Source: Candidatus Saccharimonadota bacterium (GTDB taxonomy: Bacteria; Bacteroidota; Bacteroidia; Cytophagales; Amoebophilaceae). From it: a stretch of 32,000 nt of DNA. The first letter of the stretch is position 1. Each line of letters starts with the position of its first letter. The notes under the pieces were generated by a model, which was not told the origin of the DNA, searched no databases, and worked only from the letters and a program-made list of their open reading frames with translations. This document shows positions 1,123 to 31,950 of the stretch, piece after piece. The DNA is taken from the NCBI RefSeq assembly GCF_936981045.1, contig NZ_OW441264.1:570001-602000 (forward strand). Reading direction: 5' to 3'. The translations under genes and the position numbers were made by a program.

Positions 1123-1446
1123 GTCTAGAGTAAAGAAATGGTTGGACCACTTAAAATTAAGCATATCTATTGCTTCTGATTGCTCGCAATACAGTAGCTG
1201 ACTAACTTGATTCTTCATTGTTTACCCATTCCCTTCTCATCCCAAGGTACGTTCAGTTTTCCCGAATACGGCGGTCCGACAGTCTTCTTCATAAACCTTG
1301 CACAACTCTCTCAGGATAGTTAATCATTCCACTACCAATGTACAACATCCCCATTGTATAGAGTTTGCTATTGGGATAGCTTTGCCACCCACACCCACGG
1401 CCTTTTCTTCTATGGGTTAAGTATCTGCGAAATCGGTTATTAATAA
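1123..1446 (-). mobile_element. Group II intron 3' fragment (end of RT/maturase ORF, domain V, 3' tail), decayed
   Basis: Reverse complement of about 10400-10720, still joined to the same IS6 exon. The 3' strand of domain V carries substitutions (GTACCTTGG instead of GTACGGTGG). Confidence 0.85.
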
Positions 1447-2435
1447 CCTGAGTTCGGGATTAGCTTGTTAAAAAATAGCTTTAAAAAGCTCCTTTATGTT
1501 TTAAATTTGGAGATAAAAAAATACTAACCAGATTACCCAAAGGAGCTAGTTATAAATGTAGAAAAGTTAGTTGAAATATATTATGCTGTTAATGAATTTC
1601 TCATAAAGTTTATGCCGTATATGGAAAAACAACTGTTAACCAACTCTAAAAGAAAACCCACTAGAACTTGTTCATTAACTTTGAGTGAAATAATGACTGT
1701 TCTTATTGCCTTTCATGTGATTGGTTTTAGAAATTTTAAGTCTTATTATATTCATTTACAGCAATTTCATTCTAGTAAATTTGGAAAGTTAGTAAGCTAG
1801 AATAGATTTATAGAACTGATCCAAAGAACGTTAGTTCCCTTGTACTGTTTTACACAAAGTCTTTCTAAAACAAAAACAGGTTGTTATTTTATGGATGCAA
1901 CAGCCATCAAGGTTTGCCATATCAAAAGAGCCTATACGCACAGGGTTTTTAAATCGATTGCTACTAAAGGTAAAACCAGCATCGGTTGGTTTTTTGGATT
2001 AAAGTTGCACTTGATAGTCAATGATTTAGGAGAAATCATGAATTTTCGACTGACCACAGGTAAAACTAATGATAGGCTTCCTGTAGAAAATTTATGTAAA
2101 CACTTCATGGGTAAAATGTTTGCCGATAAAGGTTACATAAGCAAAGATTTATTTAAAAAACTGATCGAGAAAGGCGTGGAACTCATTACCCAGATCAGAA
2201 AAAATATGAAAAATGCTTTTATGCCACTCTGGGATAAACTGATGCTTAGAAAACGATCTATAATTGAAACTATTATAGATCATCTCAAAAATATTAGCCA
2301 GATAGAACATTCCAGGCATAGAAGCATACCTAATTTTCTAGTCAATTTGATAACTGGAATTACAGCTTATGCACTAAAAGAGAAAAAACCTTCTATAACT
2401 AATATATATATGACTGGTTCACAATACGTCTAATC
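1447..2435 (+). mobile_element. IS982-family element, copy 1, right end cut off by an IS256 insertion
   Basis: Left TIR (AA)CCTGAGTTCGGGATTAG. Collinear with the intact copy at 13511-14512 up to ..CGTCTAATC, where an IS256 terminus begins. Confidence 0.9.
1552..2435 (+). pseudogene. IS982-family transposase, inactivated
   Basis: Start codon is ATA where copy 2 has ATG (1552-1554). In-frame TAG at 1798-1800 where copy 2 reads TAC. The ORF track shows it split into 1612-1800 and 1840-2433. Confidence 0.85.
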
Positions 2436-3778
2436 GGAAGTGTTCTATAAACTGTGTCAAGGCGATAAAAAGTTATAAATTAATTAAATAAACATTAAAG
2501 GTTTTAGACATGGAAGAAAATAAGGACAATTCCTATGTTGGTTTAGTAGATTACAAATTTCTGGAGGAAAATATTTTGTGCTCTATCCGTTTAGGTAAGC
2601 CTTTAACAGGAAAAGGTGGTGCTTTAACGCCTCTGATAAAAAAGCTTCTAGAGGCAAGTCTAGAAGGTGAAATGGCACACCATTTATCTAGTGATTCAAC
2701 AGAAAATAATAGAAGAAATGGAAAAAGCTCTAAAACTTTACGTACAAGTTCTGGTTCCTTTGATCTGCTAACTCCTAGGGATAGGACAGGTAGTTTCGAT
2801 CCACAAATAGTTAAAAAGCGTCAAACAAGCCTACATCCTGAGCTGGAAAGCAAGATCTTAAGCATGTTTTCTAGTGGTATGAGCTATAAATCTATAGCCG
2901 TTTATGTTGAAGAGATCTATGATCATAAAGTATCAGCTGCTGAAATATCATCTATTACAGATAGCTTGTTACCGATAATAAATGAATGGCGTAACCGCCC
3001 TCTTCAATCAGTTTATCCGATAGTTTTCATGGATGGGATATTTTTTAAGGTAAAAGAAGATGGCAGATGTGTAAGCAAATGCATGTATACCTTATTAGGC
3101 ATAGATCAAGAGGGTAAAAAAGAAGTATTGGGATTTTATTTGTCTGAAAGTGAGGGGGCTAACTTCTGGTTGGGTGTACTTAACGAGCTTAAGGAAAGAG
3201 GTGTAGAAGATATCCTTATTGCCTGTGTTGATGGCCTAAAAAGCTTTCCTTCAGCCATAAATAGCGTTTTCCCTAATGCACAAGTGCAGGTCTGTGTAGT
3301 ACATCAGATACGAAACTCACTCAAGTATGTAGCTATCAAAGACGTAAAACGTTTTTTAACTGATTTAAAGCAAATATATCAAGCTTCAAGTAAGGAAGTT
3401 GCTGAGCATTATCTATTGGAATTAGAAGAAAAATGGGGGGGGAAGTATCCAATGGTTACCAAATCTTGGCAAAATAATTGGGAACATTTGTCTGGTTATT
3501 TTAAGTATTCAGATCCTGTCAGAAGGCTAATTTATACCACCAATCCTATAGAAAGCTTGCATAGGCAGATTAGGAAGTTTACCAAGACAAAACGTTTACC
3601 AGTATAAATGCTTTGTATAAATTAGTATATTGTGCCATAAAGAAGATCGAGGATAAATGGACTATTCCGCTGCGAAACTGGGCGCTGACTATATCTCAGA
3701 TAGACATCTTTTTTCCCGGTAGATTAAAAGAGACGTTGAGATGAACAGGAGATGTGAAACAGTTTATAAAACACTTCC
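2436..3778 (+). mobile_element. IS256-family element, type 1
   Basis: Imperfect TIRs GGAAGTGTTCTATAAACTGTGTCA and (reverse complement) GGAAGTGTTTTATAAACTGTTTCA. A second copy lies at 22405-23751 on the minus strand. Confidence 0.85.
2510..3744 (+). pseudogene. IS256-family (mutator-type) transposase with a 3' frameshift
   Basis: The 365-aa ORF has typical IS256 motifs (IACVDGLKSF, VQVCVVHQIRN, YTTNPIESLHRQIRK). A 4-nt deletion relative to the other copy (ACAAAACGTTT versus ACAAAAGGAGCGTTT) near 3592 truncates the C-terminus. Confidence 0.8.
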
Positions 3779-4679: not shown

Positions 4680-5600
4680 TTATTTCAGTGCATTAACAAT
4701 CGTTGTGGCATTGGAACGGACCATGCCACAATAGGTTCCTTCTATAGTATCAGATGCACCTAGTGCATCAGAATAGAGGCAGCCTCCTACCACTACCTTA
4801 TGCCCATAATGGGCACAACCCTCTACTACAGCCTGCATGGATTTATCTGAAACAGAAGTTTCAAAAAAAACTGCTTTAATATTTCGTTCTATAACAAGCT
4901 CTACAATATTTTTAATGTTTTTTAACCCAGATTCAGGTATAGTAGAAACGCCTTGTAAACCAACTACTTCTATATTATACGCCTTGCTAAGGCAACCAAA
5001 AGCATCATGTGCTATGATCAGTACCCGCTGTTTTGCTCGAATAGATTGAATTTGGGTAGTAACTGATTGATGTAATTGCTTTAGTGCTTCTATATAAGCC
5101 AACGTATTATTTTGATAGTAAGCCGCTGATACGGGTCTTGCTTCTTGTAGCTTTTGACCGATAAAACTGACTACCTGTTTCCATAGTCTTACATCAAACC
5201 AGATATGGGGGTCTACCCCAATGGGACCGTATAGCAGCTCTGTTTTATTGAGGGCCTCACTAACCGCATAAGCTTTCCTTTCTTTAGACATTCTTTGCAA
5301 TAGATCTGTCATTTTATCCTCTAAATCAAGACCATTGTAAAATATTATATGCGCGCGCCTAAGCTGTTGCACATCTTTTTGGGTAGTTTGATATATATGA
5401 GGATCTATACCAGGTCCCATCAAATTCACTACTTGGGCATCCTCCTTCACAATGTTTTTAATAGCATCTCTCAAGATGTCTGTCGTGGTTAAAATACAAG
5501 AGGATAGGATCAAACAAGAAAATAGACAAAAAGCTTTATACGAATTTAATAATATGCATCTAGTAAAATTTTCTATCATACAGAATATTATGTTTAACAC
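4680..5600 (-). CDS. Metal ABC transporter substrate-binding lipoprotein (cluster A-I, TroA/ZnuA-like), paralog 2
   Basis: Motifs GPGIDPHIY, VDPHIWFD, IIAHDAFG, LYSDALG. Lipobox-like LFSC/LSSC. The likely true start is the ATG at 5579. Confidence 0.85.
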   Translation of the reverse strand: MLNIIFCMIENFTRCILLNSYKAFCLFSCLILSSCILTTTDILRDAIKNIVKEDAQVVNLMGPGIDPHIYQTTQKDVQQLRRAHIIFYNGLDLEDKMTDLLQRMSKERKAYAVSEALNKTELLYGPIGVDPHIWFDVRLWKQVVSFIGQKLQEARPVSAAYYQNNTLAYIEALKQLHQSVTTQIQSIRAKQRVLIIAHDAFGCLSKAYNIEVVGLQGVSTIPESGLKNIKNIVELVIERNIKAVFFETSVSDKSMQAVVEGCAHYGHKVVVGGCLYSDALGASDTIEGTYCGMVRSNATTIVNALK

Positions 5601-5794: not shown

Positions 5795-6724
5795 TTATGA
5801 TAGTGCATTGACAATCGTTTTAGCATTGGCACTGACCATGCCACAATAGGTTACTTCTAGCGTATTAGGTGCACCCAGTGCATCAGAATAGAGGTAGCCC
5901 CCTACCCTTACTTTATGGCTGTAACGGGCACAACCTTCTACTACAGCCCGCATGGACTTATCTGAAACAGAAGTTTCAAAAAAAACTGCTTTAATATTTC
6001 GTTCTATAATAAGCTTTACAATGCGCCTAATATCTTTTAACCCGCACTCAGATGCAGTAGAAATACCCTGTAAACCAACTACTTCTATATCATAAGCCTT
6101 TCCAAAGTAACCAAAAGCATCATGTGCAGTAATCAATACCCGTTGTTTCTTTGGAATGGATTGGATTTGGGCAACAACCGATTGATGTAATTGCTCTAGT
6201 ACTTCCATATAAGTCAACGTATTATTTTGATAATAAGCCGCTGATTCAGGCTTTGCTGCTTGAAGTTTTTGACTGATAAAACCAATCACCTGTTTCCATA
6301 GCTTTACATCAAACCAGATATGGGGGTCTACTCCGATAGAACCGTCGCATAGTAGCTGTGTTTTATTGAGGGCATCACTAGCCGCATACACCTTCCTTGC
6401 TTTGGCCATTTCTTTCAATAGATTATTCATTTTGCCTTCCAAATCAAGGCCATTATAAAAGATTATATGCGCATGCATAAGCTGCTGTACATCTTTTTGA
6501 GTAGTTTGATAGGTATGAGGGTCTATACCAGGTCCCATTAGGCTGACTACACGCGCATCCTCTTTTACAATGTTTTCAACAGCGTCTCTGAGCATACCCG
6601 TGGTGGTTAAAATGGTAAATGGTTCGTCTGGAGTATGATCAACACACGAAAATAGGCTTAACCCAAAAAACAAATAAACCATCTTATACCTATTGGACGA
6701 TAGGTACCTAATAAAAGCTATCAT
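5795..6724 (-). CDS. Metal ABC transporter substrate-binding lipoprotein (TroA/ZnuA-like), paralog 1
   Basis: Same motif set as 4680-5600 and collinear with it along most of its length. Signal/lipobox GLSLFSC. Confidence 0.9.
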   Translation of the reverse strand: MIAFIRYLSSNRYKMVYLFFGLSLFSCVDHTPDEPFTILTTTGMLRDAVENIVKEDARVVSLMGPGIDPHTYQTTQKDVQQLMHAHIIFYNGLDLEGKMNNLLKEMAKARKVYAASDALNKTQLLCDGSIGVDPHIWFDVKLWKQVIGFISQKLQAAKPESAAYYQNNTLTYMEVLEQLHQSVVAQIQSIPKKQRVLITAHDAFGYFGKAYDIEVVGLQGISTASECGLKDIRRIVKLIIERNIKAVFFETSVSDKSMRAVVEGCARYSHKVRVGGYLYSDALGAPNTLEVTYCGMVSANAKTIVNALS

Positions 6725-6730
6725 ACAATA

Positions 6731-7390
6731 CTATAAAGTTATTAAAATATGATCTGTTATCTTACGAGATATATTAATTTTATGCTGGTTATCAATAGTT
6801 ACATCCATAGATTCATCAAATTGAATTTTTTCAACAACGGTTATTTTAGATCCCAAATAGATATTTCTTTTACCCAGATATTGTAAAAAGGGGGCTGAAT
6901 CATCTTTAATGGCACTTACTATACCACTTGCTCCCTCAGATAGATCTGTCATTAATAATCTGGGCTTAACTATAATGTTTCCATCAGCATTTGGAATCAC
7001 TATACCATGAGGGTTGCAATAGGGGTTGCCTAGAAAATTGTCCAGCCGATTTATCAGTATATTGGAGTCAATATGCTCTAGTTGTTCTGCGATCTCGTCT
7101 ATTTCACTCCATCCAAACTTTAGTTTATCTACTAAGAAAACCTCCCACAGCAAATGTTTTCTTAGAATCTTTATAGCAGATTGTTTCCCTGTTTCTGTCA
7201 AAGTTACACCTTGGTATTTTCGGTAGACAACCAGCCCTTTGCTATGTAGTTTCTGCATCATATCGGTAATGGATGCAGCACTGGTCTGTAAAAACTCCGC
7301 CATGGCCGTAGTGGAAACCAATGTTTCTTTCCTTTCCGAAAGCATATAAATGGCTTTTAAATAATTCTCTTCTGCATGTGTACGTTTCAT
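6731..7390 (-). CDS. DtxR/MntR/TroR-family metal-dependent transcriptional regulator with C-terminal FeoA/SH3-like domain
   Basis: N-terminal winged-helix region (ENYLKAIY..ASITDMMQKL..GLV). Dimerisation/metal region (LRKHLLWEVFL..EQLEH..CPHG-like NPHG). It is the first gene of the metal uptake operon. Confidence 0.85.
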   Translation of the reverse strand: MKRTHAEENYLKAIYMLSERKETLVSTTAMAEFLQTSAASITDMMQKLHSKGLVVYRKYQGVTLTETGKQSAIKILRKHLLWEVFLVDKLKFGWSEIDEIAEQLEHIDSNILINRLDNFLGNPYCNPHGIVIPNADGNIIVKPRLLMTDLSEGASGIVSAIKDDSAPFLQYLGKRNIYLGSKITVVEKIQFDESMDVTIDNQHKINISRKITDHILITL

Positions 7391-7588: not shown

Positions 7589-7828
7589 ACGTGAGTTCGG
7601 GATTTATTTGAGTGATTTACAACAATTTAATATCAATTATTTAGTTAATATTTGCACCTATTTAACAAGTTTTTATACCTAATTTTATAAATATAATATA
7701 TATAATAAACTGATTACCAGAATTATTTGTTATTTAACTATTTATTTAACTGTCTATAAAACAAATTTTATAAATTTTCATTGATATTGATTATCAAATG
7801 AAAAAATAATCTAATCCCGAACTCAGGT
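7589..7828 (+). mobile_element. MITE (type 1, IS982-like termini), copy 1
   Basis: Termini ACGTGAGTTCGGGATT...AATCCCGAACTCAGGT. AT-rich non-coding interior. Flanked by TAATA on both sides. Confidence 0.85.
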
Positions 7829-7925
7829 TAATAGTTGAAAGAGCTATACAAGAAGTATGACCTACTACACTTGTTATCGAGTCTTGGGCTATAATTGGTA
7901 ACAACTATAGTTAAGCGTAGACAGA

Positions 7926-8090
7926 GGTTTTGTCGCTTCTATATTTTCGTTAGTAAAGGCTTTTCTTTTAAGTGAAGTTTTGGATATATATTGGGTATTA
8001 TTCGGCCATTAGCATAACAAAATTCTCAAAAATAGAAAGATGATTTTTAGCTCCGATTACTTGTCCTTTTTGAATCATAGGAATGTTTTC
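7926..8090 (-). mobile_element. IS6-family right-end fragment, cut by insertion of another IS6 copy
   Basis: Reverse complement of 10734-10898. It ends exactly where the left TIR of the next IS6 copy starts (8091). Confidence 0.85.
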
Positions 8091-9242
8091 GGTTTTGTCG
8101 CGTTTATTCTAAAAAATCATTATTTTAGTATCTGCAGTTAAAAAAGTAGTTATTATGTTTAATATTTCGCCCAAATTATTACCTTATTTTAAGGGCTATT
8201 GTTCTTCAGCAGAAGTCATCCTGTTATTTGTCTAGATGAAGTATTGTTTTTCCTTGAGCTATAGAGATTTGGAAGATATGATGCGTATGAGAGGCGCAAG
8301 AGTTGATCATTCTACGCTACAAAGATGGGTTATTAAGTTTGTTCCTCTTATAGATGAAGCAGTAAGCAAAAGAAAACGACCAGTTGGTGGTAGTTGGAGA
8401 ATGGATGAAACCTATGTTAAACTAAACGGGAAGTGGATCTATTTATATAGAGCAGTAGATCGTTATGGTGATACAGTTAACTTTTTTTTATCTGAGCATA
8501 GAGACAAGTCTGCAGCTTTTTCTTTTTTTCGTAAGGCGATCACAGAAAATAATATTCCTAAGAAAGTAGTAATTGACAAAAGCGGTAGTAATAAAGCTGC
8601 CCTTGATACGATCAATACAGAACTTGATCAAGATTATACCATTCAAATATTTCAAAACAAATACTTGAATAATAGAGTTGAACAAGATCATAGGTTTATC
8701 AAAAAACGGCTAAAACCTATGCTTAGTTTTAAGTGTTTTAAGTCTGCAGCCATTGCACGCCGGCACAGGTGTGCAACAAATGGGGTGTAAGTCCCCTGAC
8801 TCTAATTTGTCTATTTCGGGAGTCTAGCAGGAGGTTGGATTTGTGGGGTGATTCACAGGTTTAAGTTACCTTTAAATGCATCTGCAAAATAGCGGGCTGC
8901 AACAAAAGTGAACCTAAATTAGCCTCGTTAAGCCGTTTAAGCGCATTTGCCGACTATCTAGTGGCTACAGGAAGGCTGATAGTAGGATGGAAAAAATAGA
9001 CCATGACCATCATACAAGTGCCGGGGTGTTAGGGGTTGCACGCTATGAATGTTTCACATCGTAGTCCGGGAGATCTGATATGAATCCAGTAGGCCACTGG
9101 AAACTTTATTGTATAAGTAAAGCGAAATCAATAAGGGTGATATCAGAAGTCCGCGGGGTCTATAATACCGTTCGTATTGATTGGGAAACCACTCAAGAGG
9201 AAAGGGACCCTACTTCAGTTAACGAGTTTAAAAGAGTTGAGA

Positions 9243-10554
9243 ATGTCTGATTGCCCTAAAGCTATGAACGGAACATTAAAAGTTCAGCAACTCCAAAGAA
9301 CTCTATATCTCAAATCCAAGCAATGTAAGGAAGTCAGATTTTATAGTATATATGATAAAATTTATCTAAAAGATGTACTTTGGGAAGCTTGGCGTCAAGT
9401 CAAAGCAAATCAAGGTTCAGCAGGGATTGATGGTAAAAGCATAAGTGATATAATAGATCAAGGTGAGGCAAAGATTATCAATAAATTGCAGCAGCAACTA
9501 CGCGCAAAGCTATACAAATTTACCTCAAGCAGGTTGGTAGAAATACCCAAAGCTAAAGGTGGAACAAGGCCACTAGAGGTAATGACCGTAGAAGATCTCA
9601 TAGTGCTCACAGCAATGAAAATAGTCATTGAACCGATCTTCGAAGCTGATTTTCATGAATGTTCATACGGCTATAGACCGAAACGAGGAGCCAAACAAGC
9701 GAGTTTAGTGATCCGAGAAGATCTATACCAGCAGGCATGGGGCGTAGTTGAGATTGATTTTCAATCATACTTTACTAGCATCTCACACGAAAAGTTATTA
9801 AAACTTATTAGTAAAAGGATAGCAGATGGCAGTATGTTGAAGCTAATTAAACAAACCCTAACAACGTCAATAGTAAAACAAGGTAAAATTACATGCAAGA
9901 AAGTTGGAGTACCGCAAGGATCACCAATATCACCGTTGTATAGTAATCTACCTAAATGTTATAGACCAAGTGTGGCACTCAAGGGGGTATCCAGAAAAGC
10001 TAAGCGCAACCTTGCATAGGTATTGTGATGATGCAATTTTGGTATGTCGTAAGAGTGCTAGCTTAGCGCTGGAGAAATTCACAGAATTAGTAAAGAGGTT
10101 ATCGCTCATTATTAACCACCAAAAGACACGAATAACGAAACTGAAAGAAGGCTTTAACTTCATAGGTTTTTACTTTGTAAAAAGAAAGAGTTCAACAAGT
10201 GGCAGAAATAGCATTTATGTATTTCCAACGAAACAATCCCAACAAAGCATCTGTAACAGACTAAAATACCTGACTTGTAGAAGAGCACTAATCAAACCTC
10301 AAACATTCATCGAGCAAATAAAACCAGTAGTGTTAGGATGGGTTAACTATTTTAAACATACGAATGCGAGTGAAGCTTTTGTTAGATTGCAGGACTTTAT
10401 TAATAACCGATTTCGCAGATACTTAACCCATAGAAGAAAAGGCCGTGGGTGTGGGTGGCAAAGCTATCCCAATAGCAAACTCTATACAATGGGGATGTTG
10501 TACATTGGTAGTGGAATGATTAAGTATCCTGAGAGAGTTGTGCAAAGTTTATGA
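9243..10554 (+). pseudogene. Group II intron reverse transcriptase/maturase, frameshifted, no endonuclease domain evident
   Basis: RT blocks: QGSAGIDG, YRPKRGAKQA, VEIDFQSYFTSISH, GVPQGSPISPLYSNL. After a frame change near 9947-9952: YLNVIDQ..LHRYCDDAILVC. X/maturase region: GWVNYFKH. There are no HNH motifs before the stop. Confidence 0.8.
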
Positions 10555-10568
10555 AGAAGACTGTCGGA

Positions 10569-10601
10569 CCGCCGTATTCGGGAAAACTGAACGTACGGTG
10601 G
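10569..10601 (+). ncRNA. Group II intron domain V
   Basis: CCGCCGTAT-TCGG-GAAAA-CTGA-AC-GTACGGTGG folds as a two-part helix with an AC bulge and a CGC triad position, the canonical D5 architecture. Confidence 0.8.
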
Positions 10602-11245
10602 GATGAGAAGGGAATGGGTAAACAATGAAGAATCAAGTTAGTCAGCTACTGTATTGCGAGCAATCAGAAGCAATAGATATGCTTAATTTTAAGTGGTCCA
10701 ACCATTTCTTTACTCTAGACCATTGTAGAGATAGAAAACATTCCTATGATTCAAAAAGGACAAGTAATCGGAGCTAAAAATCATCTTTCTACTTTTGAGA
10801 ATTTTGTTATGCTAATGGCCGAATAATAACCAATATATATCCAAAACTTCACTTAAAAGAAAAGACGTTACTAACGAAAATATAGACGCGACAGAACCCG
10901 GATACAAACTAGAAAACAATACGTCTAAATATTATTTATAATTAATATTATATTATCTCATAATCAGAATAAAAAATAAAAATATTAAATCTTTACTTTA
11001 ATATTTACAGCTATATATACCCCATTTTTAATCCCTTTAATCGAGTATGAAGCTGAATAAAATATTGTAAAAAAAATATATAAACTCATTATCATATATA
11101 TATGTGTAATTGTAAATCTCTTACTTTAACATGTAGGGTTTAAAAAAGGTGGTCGAAACTACTATTGTATAGTATCATCTTTTTTCTTAAAATTGAGGTT
11201 AAATACCTAAAGATTAGGTTGCTTTACATTTAGAAGGTTGAAACT

Positions 11246-11977: not shown

Positions 11978-12067
11978 GGAGGGTTGGCAGAGTGGTTTAA
12001 TGCAACGGTCTTGAAAACCGTGGTGCTTTTAACGGTACCGAGGGTTCGAATCCCTCACCCTCCTCCA
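11978..12067 (+). tRNA. tRNA-Ser (anticodon UGA), CCA encoded
   Basis: Cloverleaf: acceptor GGAGGGT/ACCCTCC, anticodon stem ACGGT/ACCGT with loop CTTGAAA, long variable arm, T-arm GAGGGTTCGAATCCCTC. Confidence 0.9.
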
Positions 12068-12080
12068 TAGAAGTTTATTA

Positions 12081-12320
12081 ACGTGAGTTCGGAATTTATT
12101 TGAGTGATTTACAACAATTTAATATCAATTATTTAGTTAATATTTGCACCTATTTAACAAGTTTTTATATCTAATTTTATAAATATAATATATATAATAA
12201 ACTGATTATAAGAATTATTTGTTATTCAACTACCTATTTAACTGTCTATAAAACAAATTTTATAAATTTTCATTGATATTGATTTTCAAATGAAAAAATA
12301 ATCTAATCCCGAACTCACGT
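12081..12320 (+). mobile_element. MITE (type 1), copy 2
   Basis: Same termini and interior as 7589-7828. Flanked by TATTA on both sides. Lies 13 nt downstream of tRNA-Ser. Confidence 0.85.
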
Positions 12321-12856: not shown

Positions 12857-13537
12857 TTGGACAAAAAGATGCAACAATCTTATGTCAAAAATTTACATAA
12901 AGGTCTTTTTGCCACTGCATCTCCTTGGGATCAAGCCTACGTTAAACAGGTTCTGCAAACAGACATCTGGGCTAGCGAAAAAAAACAGTTTACAATATTT
13001 TCTAATCAGGATGATCTATCGCAAGCCAAATGGTATGGCCTTAAATTTATACTTTATCCACACAAAAAGATACAAAATATAGCCGATACCATCCCCTTAG
13101 ACAAACTGAAAAGATTATCCTTTCATAAAGAAAACAGGGCAATAACCACTAAGAATTTAGCCGCAAGAAGCCTACCTACAACAGATATTTATGTGCGCAG
13201 CATTATGCCGGGCTATGGCTATCCGCTTGACAAGCTACAAGCTTCTGCGCTCTTTATTGGTACCCCTATTTATATTATAAACCAAACGAAAGATAAACGC
13301 TGGTCGCTTGTTATAACACCAGACTTTATTGTATGGGTTGAAAGCAAGGGAGTAGCCTATACCAATGATCGCTTTATTGAAAAGTGGAAATCTATTGCAA
13401 AAGAAAAGCTTGCTGCGATTATACAAACAGATACAGCTTTAGTCAATCAACAAGGAAGCTATTTAGCAACAGCTTATATTGGCACATTGTTTCCAGCACT
13501 TAGTGCTATCAACCTAAGTTCGGGATTAGCTTGTTAA
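12857..13537 (+). pseudogene. NlpC/P60-type cell-wall endopeptidase, N-terminal and SH3b-like part only, truncated by IS982
   Basis: The region ..RSLPTTD..YGYPLDKLQASALFIGTPIYII..DKRWSLVITPDFIVWV resembles the SH3b domains preceding C40 catalytic domains. There is no catalytic domain, and the last ~9 codons are IS982 TIR sequence. The frame is open from 12764 with no convincing start or signal peptide. Confidence 0.45.
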
Positions 13538-14512
13538 AAAATAGCTTTAAAAAGCTCCTTTGTGTTTTAAATTTGGAGATAAAAAAATACTAACCAGATT
13601 ATCTAAAGGAGCCAGTTATGAATGTAGAAAAATTAGTTGAAATATATTATGCTGTTAATGAATTTCTCATAAAGTTTATGCCATATATGGAAAAACAACT
13701 GTTAACCAACTCTAAAAGAAAACCCACTAGAACTTGTTCATTAACTTTGAGTGAAATAATGACTGTTCTTATTGCCTTTCATGTGATTGGTTTTAGAAAT
13801 TTTAAGTCTTATTATATTCATTTACAGAAATTTCATTCTAGTGAATTTGGAAAGTTAGTAAGATACAATAGATTTATAGAACTGATCCAAAGAACGTTAG
13901 TTCCCTTGTACTGTTTTACACAAAGTCTTTCTAAAACAAAAACAGGTTGTTATTTTATGGATGCAACAGCCATCAAGGTTTGCCATATCAAAAGAGCCTA
14001 TACGCACAGGGTTTTTAAATCGATTGCTACTAAAGGTAAAACCAGCATCGGTTGGTTTTTTGGATTAAAGTTGCACTTGATAGTCAATGATTTAGGAGAA
14101 ATTATGAATTTTCAACTGACCACAGGTAAAACTAATGATAGGCTTCCTGTAGAAAATTTATGTAAACACTTGATGGGTAAAATGTTTGCCGATAAAGGTT
14201 ACATAAGCAAAGATTTATTTAAAAAACTGATCGAGAAAGGCGTGGAACTCATTACCCAGATCAGAAAAAATATGAAAAATGCTTTTATGCCACTCTGGGA
14301 TAAACTGATGCTTAGAAAACGATCTATAATTGAAACTATTATAGATCAGCTCAAAAATATTAGCCAGATAGAACATTCCAGGCATAGAAGCATACCTAAT
14401 TTTCTAGTCAATTTGATAACTGGAATTACAGCTTATGCACTAAAAGAGAAAAAACCTTCTATAACTAATATATATGACTGGTTCACAATACGTCTAATCC
14501 CGAACTGAGGTT
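13511..14512 (+). mobile_element. IS982-family element, copy 2, apparently intact
   Basis: TIRs AACCTAAGTTCGGGATTAG and CTAATCCCGAACTGAGGTT. Contains a single uninterrupted transposase ORF. Confidence 0.9.
13618..14508 (+). CDS. IS982-family DDE transposase (intact)
   Basis: 296 aa with family-typical blocks LSEIMTVLIAFH, GCYFMDATAIKVCH, GWFFGLKLHLIVN, FADKGYIS, RKRSIIETIIDQLKNISQIEHSRHRS. Confidence 0.9.
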   Translation: MNVEKLVEIYYAVNEFLIKFMPYMEKQLLTNSKRKPTRTCSLTLSEIMTVLIAFHVIGFRNFKSYYIHLQKFHSSEFGKLVRYNRFIELIQRTLVPLYCFTQSLSKTKTGCYFMDATAIKVCHIKRAYTHRVFKSIATKGKTSIGWFFGLKLHLIVNDLGEIMNFQLTTGKTNDRLPVENLCKHLMGKMFADKGYISKDLFKKLIEKGVELITQIRKNMKNAFMPLWDKLMLRKRSIIETIIDQLKNISQIEHSRHRSIPNFLVNLITGITAYALKEKKPSITNIYDWFTIRLIPN

Positions 14513-15880: not shown

Positions 15881-16026
15881 AGAATGTATATTATGATGCT
15901 TTTTGCTGGATCACAAGTAATGTATACCCTACGTTTTGCTTGATAAAGGTATCATATCTATTCAGCAGCATGGCAATGCCACGAAAAAAATACCCCCCTC
16001 CTCCCCTTGCAAAAAGTTGAGATCAG

Positions 16027-16102
16027 AAATCAGGCCCTGCAGCTGATCAGAAAAACAGCATGCTTAAAGCCCGAAAAGCGAGCAAGCTGCAGGGCCTGAT
16101 TT
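16027..16102. repeat. Long perfect hairpin/palindromic element (18-bp GC-rich arms, 40-nt spacer)
   Basis: AAATCAGGCCCTGCAGCT (16027-16044) is the exact reverse complement of AGCTGCAGGGCCTGATTT (16085-16102). Confidence 0.7.
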
Positions 16103-16147
16103 TAGCAATTTTTTCTAAGGCGTAGTTTTTTATAAAGATAGCTTAAG

Positions 16148-16563
16148 TAGTCGTCCCTGAAGTATTATTTATCTACTTGTTAATCAACATAAAAAATATT
16201 AAAAATCTGTTAAATTTATATTAAAAAATAACCACTTTTTGAGTTGTTTTATATAAAAATCTTGCAAAACAAGGATCAAATTTAAGCAGATATATAATAT
16301 TTGTAGTAACCTGAGTTATAGATTTATTTGCCTGATTTACAAATGTTTAGTATTACTTAATTCGTTAATATCTATATCTACTAAATAAGTATTTTATCTA
16401 TAGATCATATATAATATACTGATAATCAAAATAACTTGTTGTTCAATTATTTTATTTAATTATATACAAGATGAGTTATGTAAAATAAATTTTTATTTAT
16501 ACTGATTATCAATATAAAAAATAATATAATTCAGAACTTATAATAATACTTCAGGGACGACTA
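16148..16563. mobile_element. MITE-like element, type 2 (perfect 22-bp TIRs)
   Basis: TAGTCGTCCCTGAAGTATTATT at 16148-16169 is the exact reverse complement of 16542-16563. Possible 4-bp duplication AAGT. Non-coding AT-rich interior. Confidence 0.65.
16309..16542 (+). repeat. Divergent type-1 MITE-like sequence inside the type-2 element
   Basis: ACCTGAGTTATAGATTTATTTGCCTGATTTACAA... and ...AAAAAATAATATAATTCAGAACTTA parallel the ends and layout of the type-1 MITE, but with many substitutions. Confidence 0.45.
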
Positions 16564-16576
16564 AGTAGATCTGGAC

Positions 16577-20195: not shown

Positions 20196-21472
20196 GAGGC
20201 CGTTGTGATAGATTTCTATTATAATATTTTTAGGGTTGTTTAGACTGATTTTTGGTATTAAAGTGGTATTAATTTTATTATTTATTGATTTTCATGTACT
20301 TTTATTGCATTTTAGACAGACCATTCCCCTAAAGACCTCTTAATATGATATTTGGCGACCTGTATAAGTTATAGGCTATTGCTTCGATAACGTGTTGCGT
20401 ATGAGTTTTAGCAAGTCCTATGTAGCGAGCTCCTGAGCTTCGGAACCAACTTTTAATACTTCCAAATACACGTTCTACTTTATACCTGGTTTTAGCTACC
20501 AATGTATTAAACCGTTTAGCAGTAGGTGATAAAGGATTATTTCTAGTAGCTTTCTTCTGAATAGCTGATTTTAAGGCTTTATTCTTTAATAAGGTTTCAT
20601 TAGGTGATCCGCTATAGCCCTTATCTGCATATAGCCTACTACCTACTTTTAGCTCTACTTTATCCAATAAGACTTGTAAATGAGCACTATCATGACTAGA
20701 TGCTTTTGTGGTACTGACTGCTAGGACTAAGCCTTCTTTACTTTCCACAAGGATGTGACGCTTATACCCATAGTAGAGATTATCTCCTTTTTTTGTCCAA
20801 CTCGCTTCTGGATCTACACCTTTTTGATAACTTTCGGCTACAGTTATAGTGCCATCTTCATGGAGATCATAGCTTTTTTTACCTTTAGGGCGCCTAGGGG
20901 TAGGCGTAATAGAGGCATCAACAACTGCACCATGTTGAACTAATACACCATGACTAGATAGTTGATCGTTAATTATTTTCAATAACCTTTCTAGGACCTG
21001 CTTCTCCGTAAGCGCAGTCCTAAACCTGCTTAATACGCTATGATCTGGAACAGAACTATCCATGGAAATACGACAAAATCTGCTGAAAGTGATACGATCA
21101 TTTACTTCTTCTTCTACTTGATAGTCACTCAGAGCATACCATGTTTGAAGCAACAGCATTTTAAATAAAAGAAGCGGGCTATAAGCTGCCTTTCCTGATA
21201 AACACAAACCTTTAGGATAATACAAGAAAAGTTCTTTTTCTATTACTTGCCAAGTAATCAACTTATTAAGCTGATCGAAAAAAGTATGCTTACACTTACG
21301 TCGACTGGCTGAAATATCTGCAAAACTTAATTGATTATTTGTTTTGATGGCCATAACAATACTATTAAAAAGCTTAAGTTTAAACGATTAAAGAATCAAC
21401 CTAATTTAACCATTGTATAACACTAAAAGTCACTTTTTATAACAAAGCTTAAAACTCTATTGCAACAACCTC
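20196..21472 (-). mobile_element. IS5-family element, apparently intact
   Basis: Ends GAGGCCGTTGTGATAGAT and (reverse complement) GAGGTTGTTGCAATAGAG. Flanked by GATTT on both sides, while the uninterrupted target in copy B has GATTT once. Confidence 0.8.
20329..21354 (-). CDS. IS5-family DDE transposase (intact)
   Basis: 341 aa. InsH-like N-terminal domain (YSPLLLFKMLLLQTWYALSDYQVEEEVNDRITFSRFC), then the DDE region (VVDASI..YGYKRHILV..ADKGYSG). Confidence 0.9.
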   Translation of the reverse strand: MAIKTNNQLSFADISASRRKCKHTFFDQLNKLITWQVIEKELFLYYPKGLCLSGKAAYSPLLLFKMLLLQTWYALSDYQVEEEVNDRITFSRFCRISMDSSVPDHSVLSRFRTALTEKQVLERLLKIINDQLSSHGVLVQHGAVVDASITPTPRRPKGKKSYDLHEDGTITVAESYQKGVDPEASWTKKGDNLYYGYKRHILVESKEGLVLAVSTTKASSHDSAHLQVLLDKVELKVGSRLYADKGYSGSPNETLLKNKALKSAIQKKATRNNPLSPTAKRFNTLVAKTRYKVERVFGSIKSWFRSSGARYIGLAKTHTQHVIEAIAYNLYRSPNIILRGL

Positions 21473-21507: not shown

Positions 21508-22404
21508 ATGAAAAGAAAAGAGACAGTTAAAGATGGGATAAGCAAGGCCATAGATGTACTGATAGAATCAGGTGTAGACCTTTCCAGACTTTTTGATCAA
21601 GACGGCTTACTCAAACAATTAAGTAAGCGTCTTGTAGAAAAAGCATTACAGTCAGAAATGGATGACCATTTAGGTTATAATAAGTATGCACGTAGTGATT
21701 CAGAGAATGTACGTAATGGATTATGCAGTAAGCAAGTTATTACTGATAATGGCGTTATATCGGTTGAAGTACCCAGAGGTAGAGCATCGACTTTTGAACC
21801 TATTTTATTGCCTAAGCGTCAAACAAGAATTTCTGTAAGATCTTATCTTTATATGCTAAAGGTATGAGTCTGTCAGATATTCAGATTCAAATACAGGAAT
21901 TATATGGCGCAGAAGTAAGTGAAAGCCTGATAAGTAACATCATAGACTCTGTTATTGAAGATGTTAAGATATGGCAAAATCGTCCCTTAGAATCAGTCTA
22001 TTCTATTGTTTTTTTTGATTGCTTTGTAGTTAAAGTTAGACAAGATAAGCGCATCATCAACAAGGCAGTCTATGTCGCTTTAGGTATAGATAGATCTGGC
22101 ATAAAGGATGTTTTAGGGCTTTGGATGAGTGAAAATGAAGGGGCTAAATTTTGGTTAGGCAATTTAACAGAACTCAAAAATCGGGGTATGAACGATATGC
22201 TCATTGCATGTACAGATAATTTGTCAGGCATGTCTGAGGCCATTTCTGCTGTATACCCAAAAACGGAACATCAGCTCTGTATTGTTCATGCAATTAGGGG
22301 TAGTTTGCAGTATGTTTCTTATAAACATAGAAAGGTATTAGTTGCTGATTTAAAACCAATTTATACAGCAGTTACCGAGCAAGAAGCATTGATGGCCTTA
22401 GAAA
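21508..22404 (+). pseudogene. IS256-family type-2 transposase, frameshifted and 3'-truncated
   Basis: Split ORFs 21508-21867 and 21864-22487. About 10 nt are missing near 21835 relative to copy B (..RQTRIPSLDDKILSLYAKG..). Confidence 0.8.
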
Positions 22405-23751: not shown

Positions 23752-23928
23752 TATACGGCATAAACTTTATGAGAAATTCATCAACAGCATAATATATTTC
23801 AACTAATTTTTCTACATTCATAACTGGCTCCTTTGGATAATCTGGTTAGTATTTTTTTATCTCCAAATTTAAAACACAAAGAAGCTTTTTAAAGCTATTT
23901 TTTAACAAGCTAATCCCGAACTCAGGTT
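23752..23928 (-). mobile_element. IS982-family left-end fragment
   Basis: Reverse complement of the first ~177 bp of IS982 (TIR to codon ~Y in MPYME). Cut by IS256 type 1. Confidence 0.85.
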
Positions 23929-23932
23929 TATA

Positions 23933-24173
23933 ACGTGAGTTCGGGATTTATTTGACTGATTTACAACAATTTAATATCAATTATTTAGTTAATATTTGCA
24001 CCTATTTAACAAGTTTTTATATCTAATTTTATAAATATAATATATATAATAAACTGATTACCAGAATTATTTGTTATTCAACTACCTATTTAACTGTCTA
24101 ATAAAACAAATTTTATAAATTTTCATTGATATTGATTATCAAATGAAAAAATAATCTAATCCCGAACTCACGT
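23933..24173 (+). mobile_element. MITE (type 1), copy 3, without matching flanking duplication
   Basis: Same termini and interior as the other copies. The flanks differ: TTATA on the left, TATTA on the right. Confidence 0.85.
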
Positions 24174-24554
24174 TATTAGATTAAATTGTGTACCAATCTG
24201 GAATGCGATTTGGGAAAAAAGTTTGGTTGGACTATATTCCGCAATGGCGTCTAGACAACGCCCTAAAGCGTCGTCATTAAACATTTCTGCTGTAATATCA
24301 GGCCTAAATAACTTATCTACAAGTTTATTAGATAAGAATTCTGGAAACATATAAAGTCGATCATCCATAAATTCTAGCCCATTGAGTATCATGGCAGTGA
24401 CCCGCTCTCCCATCTTTACTTTAGCTCCTTTTTCTTGTGAGACTGGAAGGCATTCATCTATTTTTTGGATCAATCCAATTTTATCTATTACACTGGAAAT
24501 TAATCCTAAATAATCTAGGACTAAGCTGCCTATAATTTGTTCTTCTTTTAACAT
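24168..24554 (-). pseudogene. IS1634-family (IS4-superfamily) transposase, N-terminal DUF4277-like fragment
   Basis: LDYLGLISSVIDKIGLIQKIDECL..ERVTAMILNGL..RLYMFPEF..FNDDALGRCLDAI matches the N-terminal domain pattern of IS1634-type transposases. The reading frame runs into the MITE terminus. Confidence 0.6.
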
Positions 24555-24561
24555 TCGAATA

Positions 24562-24801
24562 ACGTGAGTTCGGGATTTATTTGACTGATTTACAACAATT
24601 TAATATCAATTATTTAGTTAATATTTGCACCTATTTAACAAGTTTTTATATCTAATTTTATAAATATAATATATATAATAAAATGATTATCAGAATTATT
24701 TGTTATTCAACTACCTATTTAACTGTCTATAAAACAAATTTTATAAATTTTTATTAATATTGATTATCAAATGAAAAAATAATCTAATCCCGAACTCACG
24801 T
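24562..24801 (+). mobile_element. MITE (type 1), copy 4
   Basis: Flanked by GAATA on both sides. Inserted 7 nt upstream of the IS1634-like start codon. Confidence 0.85.
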
Positions 24802-28752: not shown

Positions 28753-29704
28753 GAGGCGGTTGCAATAGAGTTTTAAGCTTTGGTATAAAAAGTGACTTTT
28801 AGTGTTATACAATGGTTAAATTATGTTACTTCCTTAATCATTTATACTTAAGCTTTTTAATAGTATTGTTATGGTAATTCAAACAAGTGGTCAGTTAAGT
28901 TTGGCAGATATTTCAGCGAACAGGCGTAAATGCAAACATACCTTTTTTGATCAAATTAATAAGCTAGTTAATTGGTCATCAGTAGAAAAATTACTCCGCT
29001 CATATTACCCTAAAGGCTTACATTTATCAGGAAAGCCAGCGTATAGTCCGCTGATTTTGTTTAAAATGCTCTTGCTTCAGACCTGGTGTGCACTCAGTGA
29101 CTATCAAGTAGAAGAAGAAGTAAATGATCGTATTACTTTTAGCAGATTTTGTGATATTTCCATGGATAGTTCTGTTCCAGATCATAGTGTATTAAGCAGA
29201 TTTAGGACTTCCCTTACCGAACAAAAGGCCCTAGAAAAGTTATTGAAAATCATTAATGATCAGCTAGCTGCACATGGAGTACTGGTTCAACATGGTGCAG
29301 TTGTTGATGCCTCTATTACCCCCACGCCTAGACGGCCTAAAGGTAAAAAAAGCTATGATCTCCATGAAGATGGCACTATAACTGTAGCCGAAAGTTATCA
29401 AAAAGGTGTAGATCCAGAAGCGAGTTGGACAAAAAAAGGAAATAATCTCTACTATGGGTATAAGCGACACGTTCTTGTGGAAAGTAAAGAAGGCTTAGTC
29501 CTAGCAGTCAGTACCACAAAAGCATCTAGTCATGATAGTGCTCATTTACACGTCTTATTGGATAAAGTAGAGCTAAAAGCAGGTAGTAGGCTATATGCAG
29601 ATAAGGGCTACAGCGGCTCACCTAATGAAACCTTATTAAAGGATAAAGCCTTAAAATCAGCTATTCAGAAGAAAGCCACTAGAAATAATCCCTTATCACC
29701 TGCG
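28753..29704 (+). mobile_element. IS5-family element, second copy, 3'-truncated by IS256 type 2
   Basis: Left end GAGGCGGTTGCAATAGAG. Collinear with the reverse complement of 20196-21472 until ..NNPLSP. Confidence 0.85.
28871..29704 (+). pseudogene. IS5-family transposase, C-terminally truncated
   Basis: The 282-aa ORF aligns with residues 1-~277 of the 341-aa copy, then reads into foreign sequence. Confidence 0.85.
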
Positions 29705-29839
29705 GCTCTGTCCACTTAAGTGTGTAAATTATTTTTTTGGTTTTATTCAATTCTGTTTTCAAATTTAATTAAAAAATGTGCCATAGCCTCGCTCCAGTTA
29801 TGAATAGAGGTGGTCCATTTTCTAGTCATGTAGTTAATA
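29705..29839 (-). mobile_element. IS256 type-2 right-end fragment
   Basis: Reverse complement of about 31731-31865 (..HNWSEAMAHFLIKFENRIE-stop plus the terminal repeat). Confidence 0.8.
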
Positions 29840-30070
29840 ACGTGAGTTCGGGATTATATTATTTTTTCATTTGATAATCAATATCAATGAAAATTTATAA
29901 AATTTGCTTTATAGACAGTTAAATAGGTAGTTGAATAACAAATAATTCTGGTAATCAGTTTATTATATTTATAAAATTAGATATAAAAACTTGTTAAATA
30001 GGTGTAAATATTAACTAAATAATTGATATTAAATTGTTGTAAATCAGTCAAATAAATCCCGAACTGACGT
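29840..30070 (-). mobile_element. MITE (type 1), copy 5, inverted orientation, without matching flanks
   Basis: Termini are present, the interior is slightly shorter. The flanks differ: TAATA on the left, ATATT on the right. Confidence 0.8.
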
Positions 30071-30290
30071 ATATTAATAACCGATTTCGCAGATACTTAA
30101 CCCATAGAAGAAAAGGCCTTGGTTGTGGGTGGAAAAGCTATCCCAATAGCAAACTCTATACAATGGGGATGTTGTACATTGGTAGTGGAATGATTAAGTA
30201 TCCTGAGAAAGTTGTGCAAGGTTTATGAAGAAGACTGTCGGACCGCCGTATTCGGGAAAACTGAACGTACGGTGGGATGAGAAGGGAATG
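30071..30290 (+). mobile_element. Group II intron 3' fragment (RT C-terminus plus domain V)
   Basis: Collinear with about 10401-10616 of the full intron. Contains the domain V sequence. Cut ~15 nt after domain V by IS256 type 2. Confidence 0.85.
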
Positions 30291-30358
30291 GTCTTTTGTT
30301 TTAAGTGTGTAAATATTTTTTAGGATTTATCTTTACCTAAATCATAACACTTAAAACA

Positions 30359-31827
30359 ATGAAAAGAAAAGAGACAGTTAAAGATGGGATAAGCAAGGCC
30401 ATAGATGTACTGATAGAATCAGGTGTAGACCTTTCCAGACTTTTTGATCAAGACGGCTTACTCAAACAATTAAGTAAGCGTCTTGTAGAAAAAGCATTAC
30501 AGTCAGAAATGGATGACCATTTAGGTTATAACGTGAGTTCGGGATTAGATTATTTTTTCATTTGATAATCAATATCAATGAAAATTTATAAAATTTGTTT
30601 TATTAGACAATTAAATAGGTAGTTGAATAACAAATAATTCTGGTAATCAGTTTATTATGTATGTTATATTTATAAAATTAGATATAAAAACTTGTTAAAT
30701 AAGTGCAAATATTAACTAAATAATTGATATTAAATTGTTGTAAATCAGTCAAATAAATCCCGAACTCACGTTTATAATAAGTATGCACGTAGTGATTCAG
30801 AGAATGTACGTAATGGATTATTCAGTAAGCACGTTATTACTGATAATGGCGTTATATCGGTTGAAGTACCCAGAGATAGAGCATCGACTTTTGAACCTAT
30901 TTTATTGCCTAATCGTCAAACAAGAATTCCTAGTTTGGATGATAAGATCTTATCTTTATATGCTAAAGGTATGAGTCTGTCAGATATTCAGATTCAAATA
31001 CAGGAATTATATGGCGCAGAAGTAAGTGAAAGCCTGATAAGTAACATCACAGACTCTGTTATTAAAGATGTTAAGATATGGAAAAATCGTCCCTTAGAAT
31101 CAGTCTATCCTATTGTTTTTTTTGATTGCTTTGTAGTTAAAGTTAGACAAGATAAGCGCATCATCAACAAGGCAGTCTATGTCGCTTTAGGTATAGATAG
31201 ATCTGGCATAAAGGATGTTTTAGGGCTTTGGATGAGTGAAAATGAAGGGGCTAAATTTTGGTTAGGCAATTTAACAGAACTCAAAAATCGGGGTATGAAC
31301 GATATGCTCATTGCATGTACAGATAATTTGTCAGACATGTCTGAGGCCATTGCTGCTGTATACCCAAAAACGGAACATCAGCTCTGTATTGTTCATGCAA
31401 TTAGGGGTAGTTTGCAGTATGTTTCTTATAAACATAGAAAGGTATTAGTTGCTAATTTAAAACCAATTTATACAACAGTTACCGAGCAAGAAGCATTGAT
31501 GGCCTTAGAAGCTTTTGCTACTAAGTGGAATCAACAATACCCACAAATAGCCCAATCTTGGTATGCTAACTGGGATAATCTGATGGTATTTTTACAGTAC
31601 CCTAATGCCATACGTAAGGTCATTTACACAACAAATGTTTGGAATCTGTAAATAGCCAATTTCGTAGAGTTATCAAAAATAAAAGAGTGTTCCCTAACGA
31701 TCTAGCTGTTTTTAAAACATTATATCTAATTATTAACTACATGACTAGAAAATGGACCACCTCTATTCATAACTGGAGCGAGGCTATGGCACATTTTTTA
31801 ATTAAATTTGAAAACAGAATTGAATAA
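30359..31827 (+). pseudogene. IS256-family type-2 transposase, disrupted by a MITE and a frameshift
   Basis: The reading frame is interrupted at 30531-30771 by the MITE. A frameshift near 31636 (YTTN..ESVNSQFRRV) splits 30905-31651 from 31639-31827. Confidence 0.85.
30531..30771 (-). mobile_element. MITE (type 1), copy 6, inserted in a transposase codon
   Basis: Flanked by TTATA on both sides. The paralogous uninterrupted site GGTTATAATAAG is at 21673-21684. Confidence 0.9.
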
Positions 31828-31865
31828 AACCAAAAAAATAATTTACACACTTAAGTGGACAGAGC

Positions 31866-31950
31866 CCATCTGATCAATTTATTGTATGACTTTAAAACTA
31901 AACGATACGGAAAATAAATTAAAAGATTTTTGTCCGAATTTTTCAGTCCA
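31866..31950 (-). mobile_element. IS3-family left-end fragment (inverted relative to 28488)
   Basis: Reverse complement of about 28488-28572, ending at ..TCAGTCCA. Cut at the orfA start codon by IS256 type 2. Confidence 0.7.

Follow-up and report, generated by a model that had tools for sequence, protein, structure and literature searches.

Classical bacterial MITEs that are mobilised in trans include RUP of Streptococcus pneumoniae (IS630-Spn1) and the Correia elements of Neisseria, which are short, non-coding and multicopy, carry terminal repeats, are flanked by target-site duplications (TSDs) and have ends in common with a resident insertion sequence (IS). They share these features with the element analysed here, but have TA duplications and involve other IS families; to our knowledge, none of them is IS982-derived. 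The closest described system is MITECca01, an element of ~240 bp with 169 copies, amounting to 3.5% of the chromosome and representing the mobile element of greatest abundance, in Cardinium cOegib (ENA OW441264), whose host is the spider Oedothorax gibbosus (Halter, Hendrickx, Horn and Manzano-Marin 2022, Microbiol Spectr, PMC9769881). Its inverted repeats are ISCca4-like and ISCca4 was proposed as its parent; a role in disrupting other mobile elements was published for cOegib, and the element was stated to be absent from other Cardinium strains (PMC9769881). For ISCca4 itself, the ISfinder entry gives a length of 999 bp, a 291-aa transposase, inverted repeats of 18/19 and direct repeats of 6 bp, and AC-starting ends are a feature of the IS982 family (PMC7335449). 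Two further elements of the same genome, MITECca02 and a 250-bp "ISCca4 MITE-like" remnant (PMC9769881, Fig. S1), have IS982-type ends like MITECca01 but, unlike it, keep 93–105 nt of the ISCca4 left end; neither is present in the 32,000-bp stretch of DNA analysed here (the window), where all terminal-repeat matches belong to MITECca01 or ISCca4 copies.

Judged by sequence comparison, the seven ~240-bp repeats of the window, i.e., six well-preserved copies plus a fossil, are copies of the published MITECca01 and as such already known. The MITECca01 sequence of Fig. S1 (PMC9769881), machine-read with noise and recovered at 234 of 240 nt, gave 91–94% identity to the six window copies in end-to-end global alignments and 72% to the fossil copy. 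The genome, the length of ~240 bp, the 16-bp inverted repeats and the proposed parent are the same, and nothing of substance differs; six proteins encoded in the window are exact matches to proteins of the Cardinium that lives as an endosymbiont in Oedothorax gibbosus. The suggestion in the initial annotation that the element may not be catalogued was thus wrong, as it had been described in this very genome in 2022 (PMC9769881), and the interpretation offered there is the published one (MITECca01 with ISCca4 as parent), apart from the published IRL-to-IRR orientation being the reverse of the one initially chosen. Our re-analysis is therefore of value as an independent check and has little weight as a discovery. 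What it adds beyond the text of PMC9769881, which makes no mention of TSDs or a target preference of MITECca01, are the 5-bp TSD, the TAATA-type target common with ISCca4 and evidence of rearrangements mediated by copies; in a literature search, no mention of the name MITECca01 was found in later papers.

All seven repeats that had been listed were found in place (Table 1), six of them good copies with 92–98% mutual identity (mean pairwise identity 95.5%, lengths of 231–241 bp, GC content ~20%) and the seventh at ~71%. With copy 23933–24173 as BLAST query, identities were 98.3% for 30531–30771, 97.9% for 24562–24801, 97.5% for 12081–12320, 97.1% for 7589–7828 and 94.2% for 29840–30070, the last with a 9-bp internal deletion, while the diverged copy was retrieved at 16309–16538 (70.7%, E 2e-28). 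Upon alignment of the seven stretches together with 10-bp flanks, mean column identity was 90% and the similarity ended exactly at ACGT...ACGT. Insertions of MITECca01 in the window are found in other mobile elements and in intergenic DNA. Copy 7589–7828 lies ~200 bp upstream of a metal-regulator gene (6731–7390), with a group II intron fragment 10 bp away, copy 12081–12320 begins 13 bp past tRNA-Ser (11978–12067) and has one mismatch in one of its terminal inverted repeats (TIRs; GGAATT), and copy 24562–24801 is located downstream of mfd and 7 bp upstream of the start of a DUF4277 ORF.

Table 1. Coordinates of MITECca01 copies, ISCca4 copies and element E in the window; strands of MITECca01 copies refer to the IRL-to-IRR orientation as published.
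Feature	Position	Strand	Remarks
Degenerate second ISCca4 copy	1446–2433	+	197-aa C-terminal ORF only; IRR end abuts IS256-type element
MITECca01 copy, 240 bp	7589–7828	-	TSD TAATA on both sides
MITECca01 copy, 240 bp	12081–12320	-	TSD TATTA
Full-length ISCca4 (IS982 family), 1000 bp	13512–14511	+	AC..GT ends
ISCca4 transposase ORF, 296 aa	13618–14508	+	Candidate trans-mobiliser; Pfam DDE_Tnp_1_3
Element E, MITE-like, 412 bp	16150–16561		TIRs of 18–20 nt, GTCGTCCCTGAAGTATTA(TT); 6-bp TSD TAAGTA
Fossil MITECca01-type copy, ~71% identity	16309–16543	-	Degenerate TIRs; TAGTA / TAATA flanks; nested in element E
ISCca4 IRL-end fragment, 176 bp	23752–23927	-	Cut by IS256-type element
MITECca01 copy, 241 bp	23933–24173	-	No matching TSD (TTATA / TATTA)
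MITECca01 copy, 240 bp	24562–24801	-	TSD GAATA
MITECca01 copy, 231 bp	29840–30070	+	9-bp internal deletion; one TIR mutation; chimeric flanks; no TSD
MITECca01 copy, 241 bp	30531–30771	+	Within IS256-family transposase gene; TSD TTATA

MITECca01 begins with AC and finishes with GT, and its TIRs of 16 bp (ACGTGAGTTCGGGATT), perfect in most copies, differ from the ISCca4 ends by a single base. Extended beyond the TIR, the MITE end ACGTGAGTTCGGGATTAGATTATT agrees with the ISCca4 IRL ACCTGAGTTCGGGATTAGCTTGTT in 21 of 24 bases. Across the window, 16 occurrences of the motif ACNTNAGTTCGGGATT were counted versus 0.16 expected from shuffles, and they are accounted for by 12 MITE ends and four ends of IS982-type copies (1446, 13512, 14496 and 23912). 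The claim that the termini match those of the resident IS982 element thus held up, with 15 of 16 bases shared and the end motif far above shuffle expectation. The interior proved to be devoid of coding capacity and of visible IS982 similarity, as had been proposed: just one 24-codon chance ORF was found within the copies (a 128-aa ORF beside copy 23933–24173 overlaps the copy end by six bases), and the interior scored 18 against the ISCca4 interior in Smith-Waterman alignment, compared with 16.3 ± 1.8 for shuffles, 68 of 300 of which scored at least as high. As the score is no better than that of shuffles, an origin by simple internal deletion of ISCca4 is not demonstrable.

Predicted folds of MITECca01 are more stable than those of shuffled sequences (z = -4.7 as DNA and -4.8 as RNA), and a conserved hairpin, TTCATTGATATTGATTATCAAATGAA, is located just inside one end. 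Both features could be taken to speak for a host-functional repeat, namely a REP/ERIC-type structured RNA, a terminator or a promoter cassette kept under selection. The predicted stability reflects mainly the pairing of the TIRs, to which the one small hairpin adds, and in a search at Rfam gathering thresholds no family was assigned to any copy. Likewise, the copies contain no terminator-like sites, promoter-like matches are at or below shuffle expectation, the Bacteroidetes -7 motif TAnnTTTG is absent from all of them, and copies reside in both orientations and within dead transposase genes, so that we regard a host function as very improbable. MITECca01 is best read as a selfish non-autonomous transposon, whose functional parts are only the TIRs, probably together with a few adjoining bases on the inner side of each.

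The initial annotation had noted four copies bracketed by identical pentamers (TAATA, TATTA, GAATA and TTATA). These are indeed perfect 5-bp TSDs, present in four of the six good copies; by chance, at least four perfect 5-mers in six would arise with a probability of 4e-10, rising to 9e-8 when the calculation is restricted to A/T-rich flanks. The insertion at 30531–30771 was particularly informative in this respect, as it can be compared with an empty paralogue in another IS256-family element (21655–21725). The filled site reads ..TTAGGTTATA up to the left junction, then ACGTGAG..CTCACGT, followed by TTATAATAAG (fuller right flank after CTCACGT: TTATAATAAGTATG), versus ..TTAGGTTATAATAAG at the empty site (site 21675, also given as ...TTAGGTTATAATAAGTATG), which defines the exact AC..GT ends and the 5-bp TSD TTATA. 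The two flanks of this copy are 100% (over 208 bp) and 97% identical to the paralogue, the former suggesting a fairly recent insertion. A TSD of 6 bp (TTATAA at 30531) was considered for the MITE and rejected, since a sixth base finds no support in the other copies and the ends would become asymmetric. The 5-bp TSD differs in length from the 6-bp direct repeats listed for ISCca4 (PMC7335449).

The two copies lacking a TSD, 29840–30070 and 23933–24173, are both situated at rearranged or nested junctions. The former is flanked on one side by a repeat (29704–29840) whose uninterrupted paralogue is found as the reverse complement of 31730–31866, and on the other side by an intron-derived repeat (30072–30291); with different repeats on its two sides, this copy is explained as a recombinant of two MITE insertions. 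Copy 23933–24173 has one end 5 bp from the IRL of the ISCca4 fragment 23752–23927, while a DUF4277 ORF, coding for the N-terminus of an IS1634-type transposase, is truncated by its other end. As a side observation, the fragment's IRL and the MITE end thus stand face to face at 23912–23948, separated by TTATA, which equals the TSD in length; this single case may stem from an insertion that happens to lie adjacent, or be the trace of an end-to-end junction. Copies 23933–24173 and 24562–24801, which have the same orientation, also bracket a 388-bp fragment that codes only for the DUF4277 N-terminus of the IS1634-type transposase (24168–24554). One might ask if the copies spread by segmental duplication or recombination instead of transposition, given that two of six are without TSD, that 29840–30070 is flanked by two different repeats and that the fossil copy has travelled within another element (see below). 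The flanks, however, diverge immediately beyond the AC..GT ends, and the four perfect 5-bp TSDs together with the precise filled/empty pair contradict such a scenario, which we consider extremely improbable.

The partner element in the window, ISCca4 at 13512–14511, has the hallmarks of the IS982 family, i.e., a length of ~1 kb, a single DDE transposase and AC-starting ends, with ACCTAAGTTCGGGATTAGC as IRL and the reverse complement of ACCTCAGTTCGGGATTAG as IRR; the first 150 nt of ISCca4 in Fig. S1 (PMC9769881) are near-identical to the window from 13512 onward. Its ORF is an exact match to CAH2559926.1, annotated as "IS982 family transposase" from the Oedothorax gibbosus endosymbiont Cardinium, and covers the DDE_Tnp_1_3 profile completely (E 4.5e-70, profile positions 4–155 of 155). 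The description of this 296-aa protein as intact is correct insofar as neither its length nor its DDE domain is truncated, but it represents a C-terminal frameshift variant relative to the 293-aa genomic copies: it ends in ...DWFTIRLIPN instead of the ...MTGSQYV of its paralogues, the last ~10 aa being different, and as a result of the late frameshift (14480–14508) its TGA stop lies within the right inverted repeat. This ISCca4 copy has no TSD of its own, one flank having been lost to rearrangement, and the junction that is left agrees with TAATA as target: beyond position 14511, the sequence continues with TAATAGAGACC, in which TAATA lies next to the junction. In relatives, where the uninterrupted right-junction sequence reads ...ATAATAGAGACC (Nabis strain) or ...CAATAGAGACC (close relative), TAATA is single-copy, suggesting that ISCca4 likewise used a TAATA target. 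The element also marks a break in synteny, as relatives have lipB upstream of radA, a place that is taken in the window by a truncated SH3-domain ORF (12857–13537) running into ISCca4.

Seven of ~10 IS and MITE ends have TAATA or its complement TATTA beside them. Moreover, a repeat that stems from a group II intron's maturase region has received one ISCca4 copy (at 1446) and one MITECca01 copy (at 30070), each in a different copy of the repeat but at the same spot to within ±1 nt, directly after ..CGGTTATTAATA; a third copy of this repeat (10397) is uninterrupted. Such same-spot insertions suggest that the site is a strong hot spot. In 22 other genomes, ..TA precedes most IS982-type ends. Taken together, MITECca01 is small (<~300 bp) and non-coding, carries TIRs, inserts precisely with a TSD and has ends in common with a resident IS, which agrees with the definition of a MITE. 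The initial reading of a non-autonomous MITE with IS982-type ends is thus well founded on the TIRs, the 5-bp TSDs, the empty site, the lack of coding capacity and the target shared with the IS. Compared with ISCca4, the terminal 16–18 bp (matching at 15 of 16 positions), the AC ends, the A/T-rich TAATA-type target and the genome are shared, whereas MITECca01 lacks a transposase gene, has an unrelated interior and carries G instead of C at position 3 of the TIR.

Because ends, TAATA-type target and one insertion site are common to MITECca01 and ISCca4, we infer that the MITE may be mobilised in trans by the ISCca4 transposase. The cOegib genome contains 68 copies of ISCca4. According to this model, those among them that are intact, along with the one encoding the ORF at 13618–14508, would make an IS982-family DDE transposase that would bind the TIRs of MITECca01, and the bound element would be inserted by way of a cut staggered by 5 bp, with a preference for A/T-rich sites resembling TAATA. 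That the window repeats are MITECca01, with AC-starting 16-bp TIRs and insertion by an ISCca4-type DDE transposase with a 5-bp stagger, appears to us very probable on the basis of these sequence features. The differences of 2–8% between copies would mean that the MITECca01 burst is not very recent.

Some caution comes from position 3 of the ends, which is C in all four ISCca4 ends of the window (ACCT..) and G in nearly all MITE ends (ACGT..). In Cardinium cBcalN2, an IS982-type element likewise has the G form, as do 15 of 22 IS982 ends of Bacteroidota, such that another member of the IS982 family could have supplied the original or best-matched transposase. Taken further, MITECca01 might be the now-immobile relic of a lost, ACGTGAG-ended (ISCca1-like) IS982 parent, with ISCca4 as merely a cousin. 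Apart from the base at position 3, such an interpretation could draw on the finding that the MITE copies are 92–98% alike and not identical, on fossil relatives in other Cardinium strains and on the count of zero ISCca1 copies in cOegib (PMC9769881, Table 1). Yet one MITE end (7813–7828 of copy 7589–7828) already has the ISCca4-type ACCTGAG, indicating that the two end forms interconvert, and 15 of 16 terminal bases are common with ISCca4. The MITE inserted in an IS256-type copy, with flanks 100% identical over 208 bp, suggests a fairly recent insertion, and ISCca4 and the MITE use the same type of target and even one and the same insertion site. We therefore consider the relic scenario unlikely and favor mobilisation by the ISCca4 transposase.

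The seventh repeat deserves separate consideration. It had been described as a decayed relative starting at 16309; homology was confirmed, yet the repeat spans 16309–16543 and, rather than representing an independent seventh insertion, is a passenger in a larger unit, which we term element E. This unit has the ends GTCGKCCCTGAAGTATTA and is flanked by its TSD at 16144–16149 and 16562–16567; it lies beside tRNA-Glu, and in four other Cardinium genomes the orthologous tRNA-Glu site lacks it. An empty site, ...gatagtaCAAGTAgatct..., was found in the closest related strain (Logan contig, RadA 93% identical). A copy of element E with 79% identity is carried by plasmid p_B (CP101108.1, 20805–21223), which belongs to a Cardinium strain of the dust mite Dermatophagoides farinae; it has the TSD TATTTA, and an uninterrupted paralogous region, ...aaaaTATTTAatgtg..., exists on the same plasmid. 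The window unit and the p_B unit are both bounded by perfect inverted repeats GTCG[T/G]CCCTGAAGTATTA. The flanking 6-bp duplications and the empty sites identify element E as a second MITE-like element, one that is worth annotating in Cardinium genomes and of which we found no description in PMC9769881. No IS with its ends, and hence no autonomous partner, was detected in the window or on p_B. Plasmid p_B additionally carries a solo element-E end after TAAGTA (84391–84408) and a partial composite consisting of the right half of the fossil plus an element-E end (~98523–98675).

Within element E, the fossil occupies the inner edge of the right-hand TIR, and its TAGTA and TAATA flanks would fit an old insertion at a favoured TAATA target. 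Across the three composites (window, p_B 20805–21223 and p_B ~98523–98675), the fossil end reads YTATRAGYTCNGGATTATATTAT, recognisable as an IS982-type end whose tip has mutated from ACGT to YTAT in what would be an immobilised copy. Distant BLAST searches against plasmids retrieved the MITE interior on p_B (72% over 215 nt, E 1e-22), the p_B sequence aligning best with the fossil copy of the window plus its flanks, and on pcBtQ1 of a Bemisia strain (72% over 104 nt, E 3e-5). The pcBtQ1 match (3001–3097) is a decayed MITE-like piece of 104 nt whose flanks differ. Window fossil, p_B fossil and MITECca01 consensus are roughly equidistant from each other (70–74% identity), which implies that the ancestor of the family dates back at least to the spread of the composite, or else that the composite moved between strains; by the same token, the presence of element E on the plasmid of another strain indicates that the family predates the cOegib burst or has moved between strains. 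Fossils of ~70% identity on two plasmids qualify the published statement of MITE absence from other Cardinium (PMC9769881): on the sequences compared here, the burst of MITECca01 is specific to cOegib, the sequence family is not. We lean, if only slightly, toward a scenario in which the MITECca01 lineage does not belong to cOegib alone, the composite having transposed in cOegib as well as on p_B, and in which these non-autonomous elements are older or were exchanged, possibly via plasmids. If true, non-autonomous elements of Cardinium would be older than thought or would pass from strain to strain, possibly on plasmids; the nested fossil in the plasmid-shared element E alters the origin story slightly.

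Searches of species-representative genomes with the MITE end ACSTGAGTTCGGGATTWNWTT yielded 22 single matches, all confined to the terminal repeat and corresponding to IS982-type ends of Bacteroidota, of Cardinium cBcalN2 and of Cardinium TP; full-length MITECca01 was not found in these genomes, among which the genome of the window is evidently not represented, and two scans of metagenomes with patterns of the MITE interior gave no match. A solo end (3524–3551) on contig_67 of Cardinium cBcalN2 shares all of its 28 nt with the IRL side of MITECca01 (ACGTGAGTTCGGGATTAGATTATTTTTT), with no partner end or transposase nearby.

The window as a whole (~35% GC) is densely packed with genes for transposases of the IS982, IS256, IS5 and IS6 types and with pieces of group II introns, and also contains a Bacteroidota-specific DUF3822 gene. 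One group II intron region (7838–10898) shows Rfam D1–D4 matches and a frameshifted RT/maturase gene (9177–10554); it is interrupted by an IS6-type transposase gene (8236–8790) and bounded by inverted repeats of 165 bp (7926–8090 and 10734–10898). A gene for a ZnuA-type metal-binding lipoprotein (4680–5600, Pfam) is followed by a tandem paralogue (5795–6724) with 80–85% nucleotide identity, the pair adjoining the metal-dependent regulator gene at 6731–7390. Finally, a GC-rich palindrome with a perfect 18-bp stem (AAATCAGGCCCTGCAGCT) and a 40-nt loop is located downstream of radA (16003–16110), and two inverted relatives of it (73–78%) flank an ORF on contig_67 of Cardinium cBcalN2 (1872–1951 and 3307–3390).
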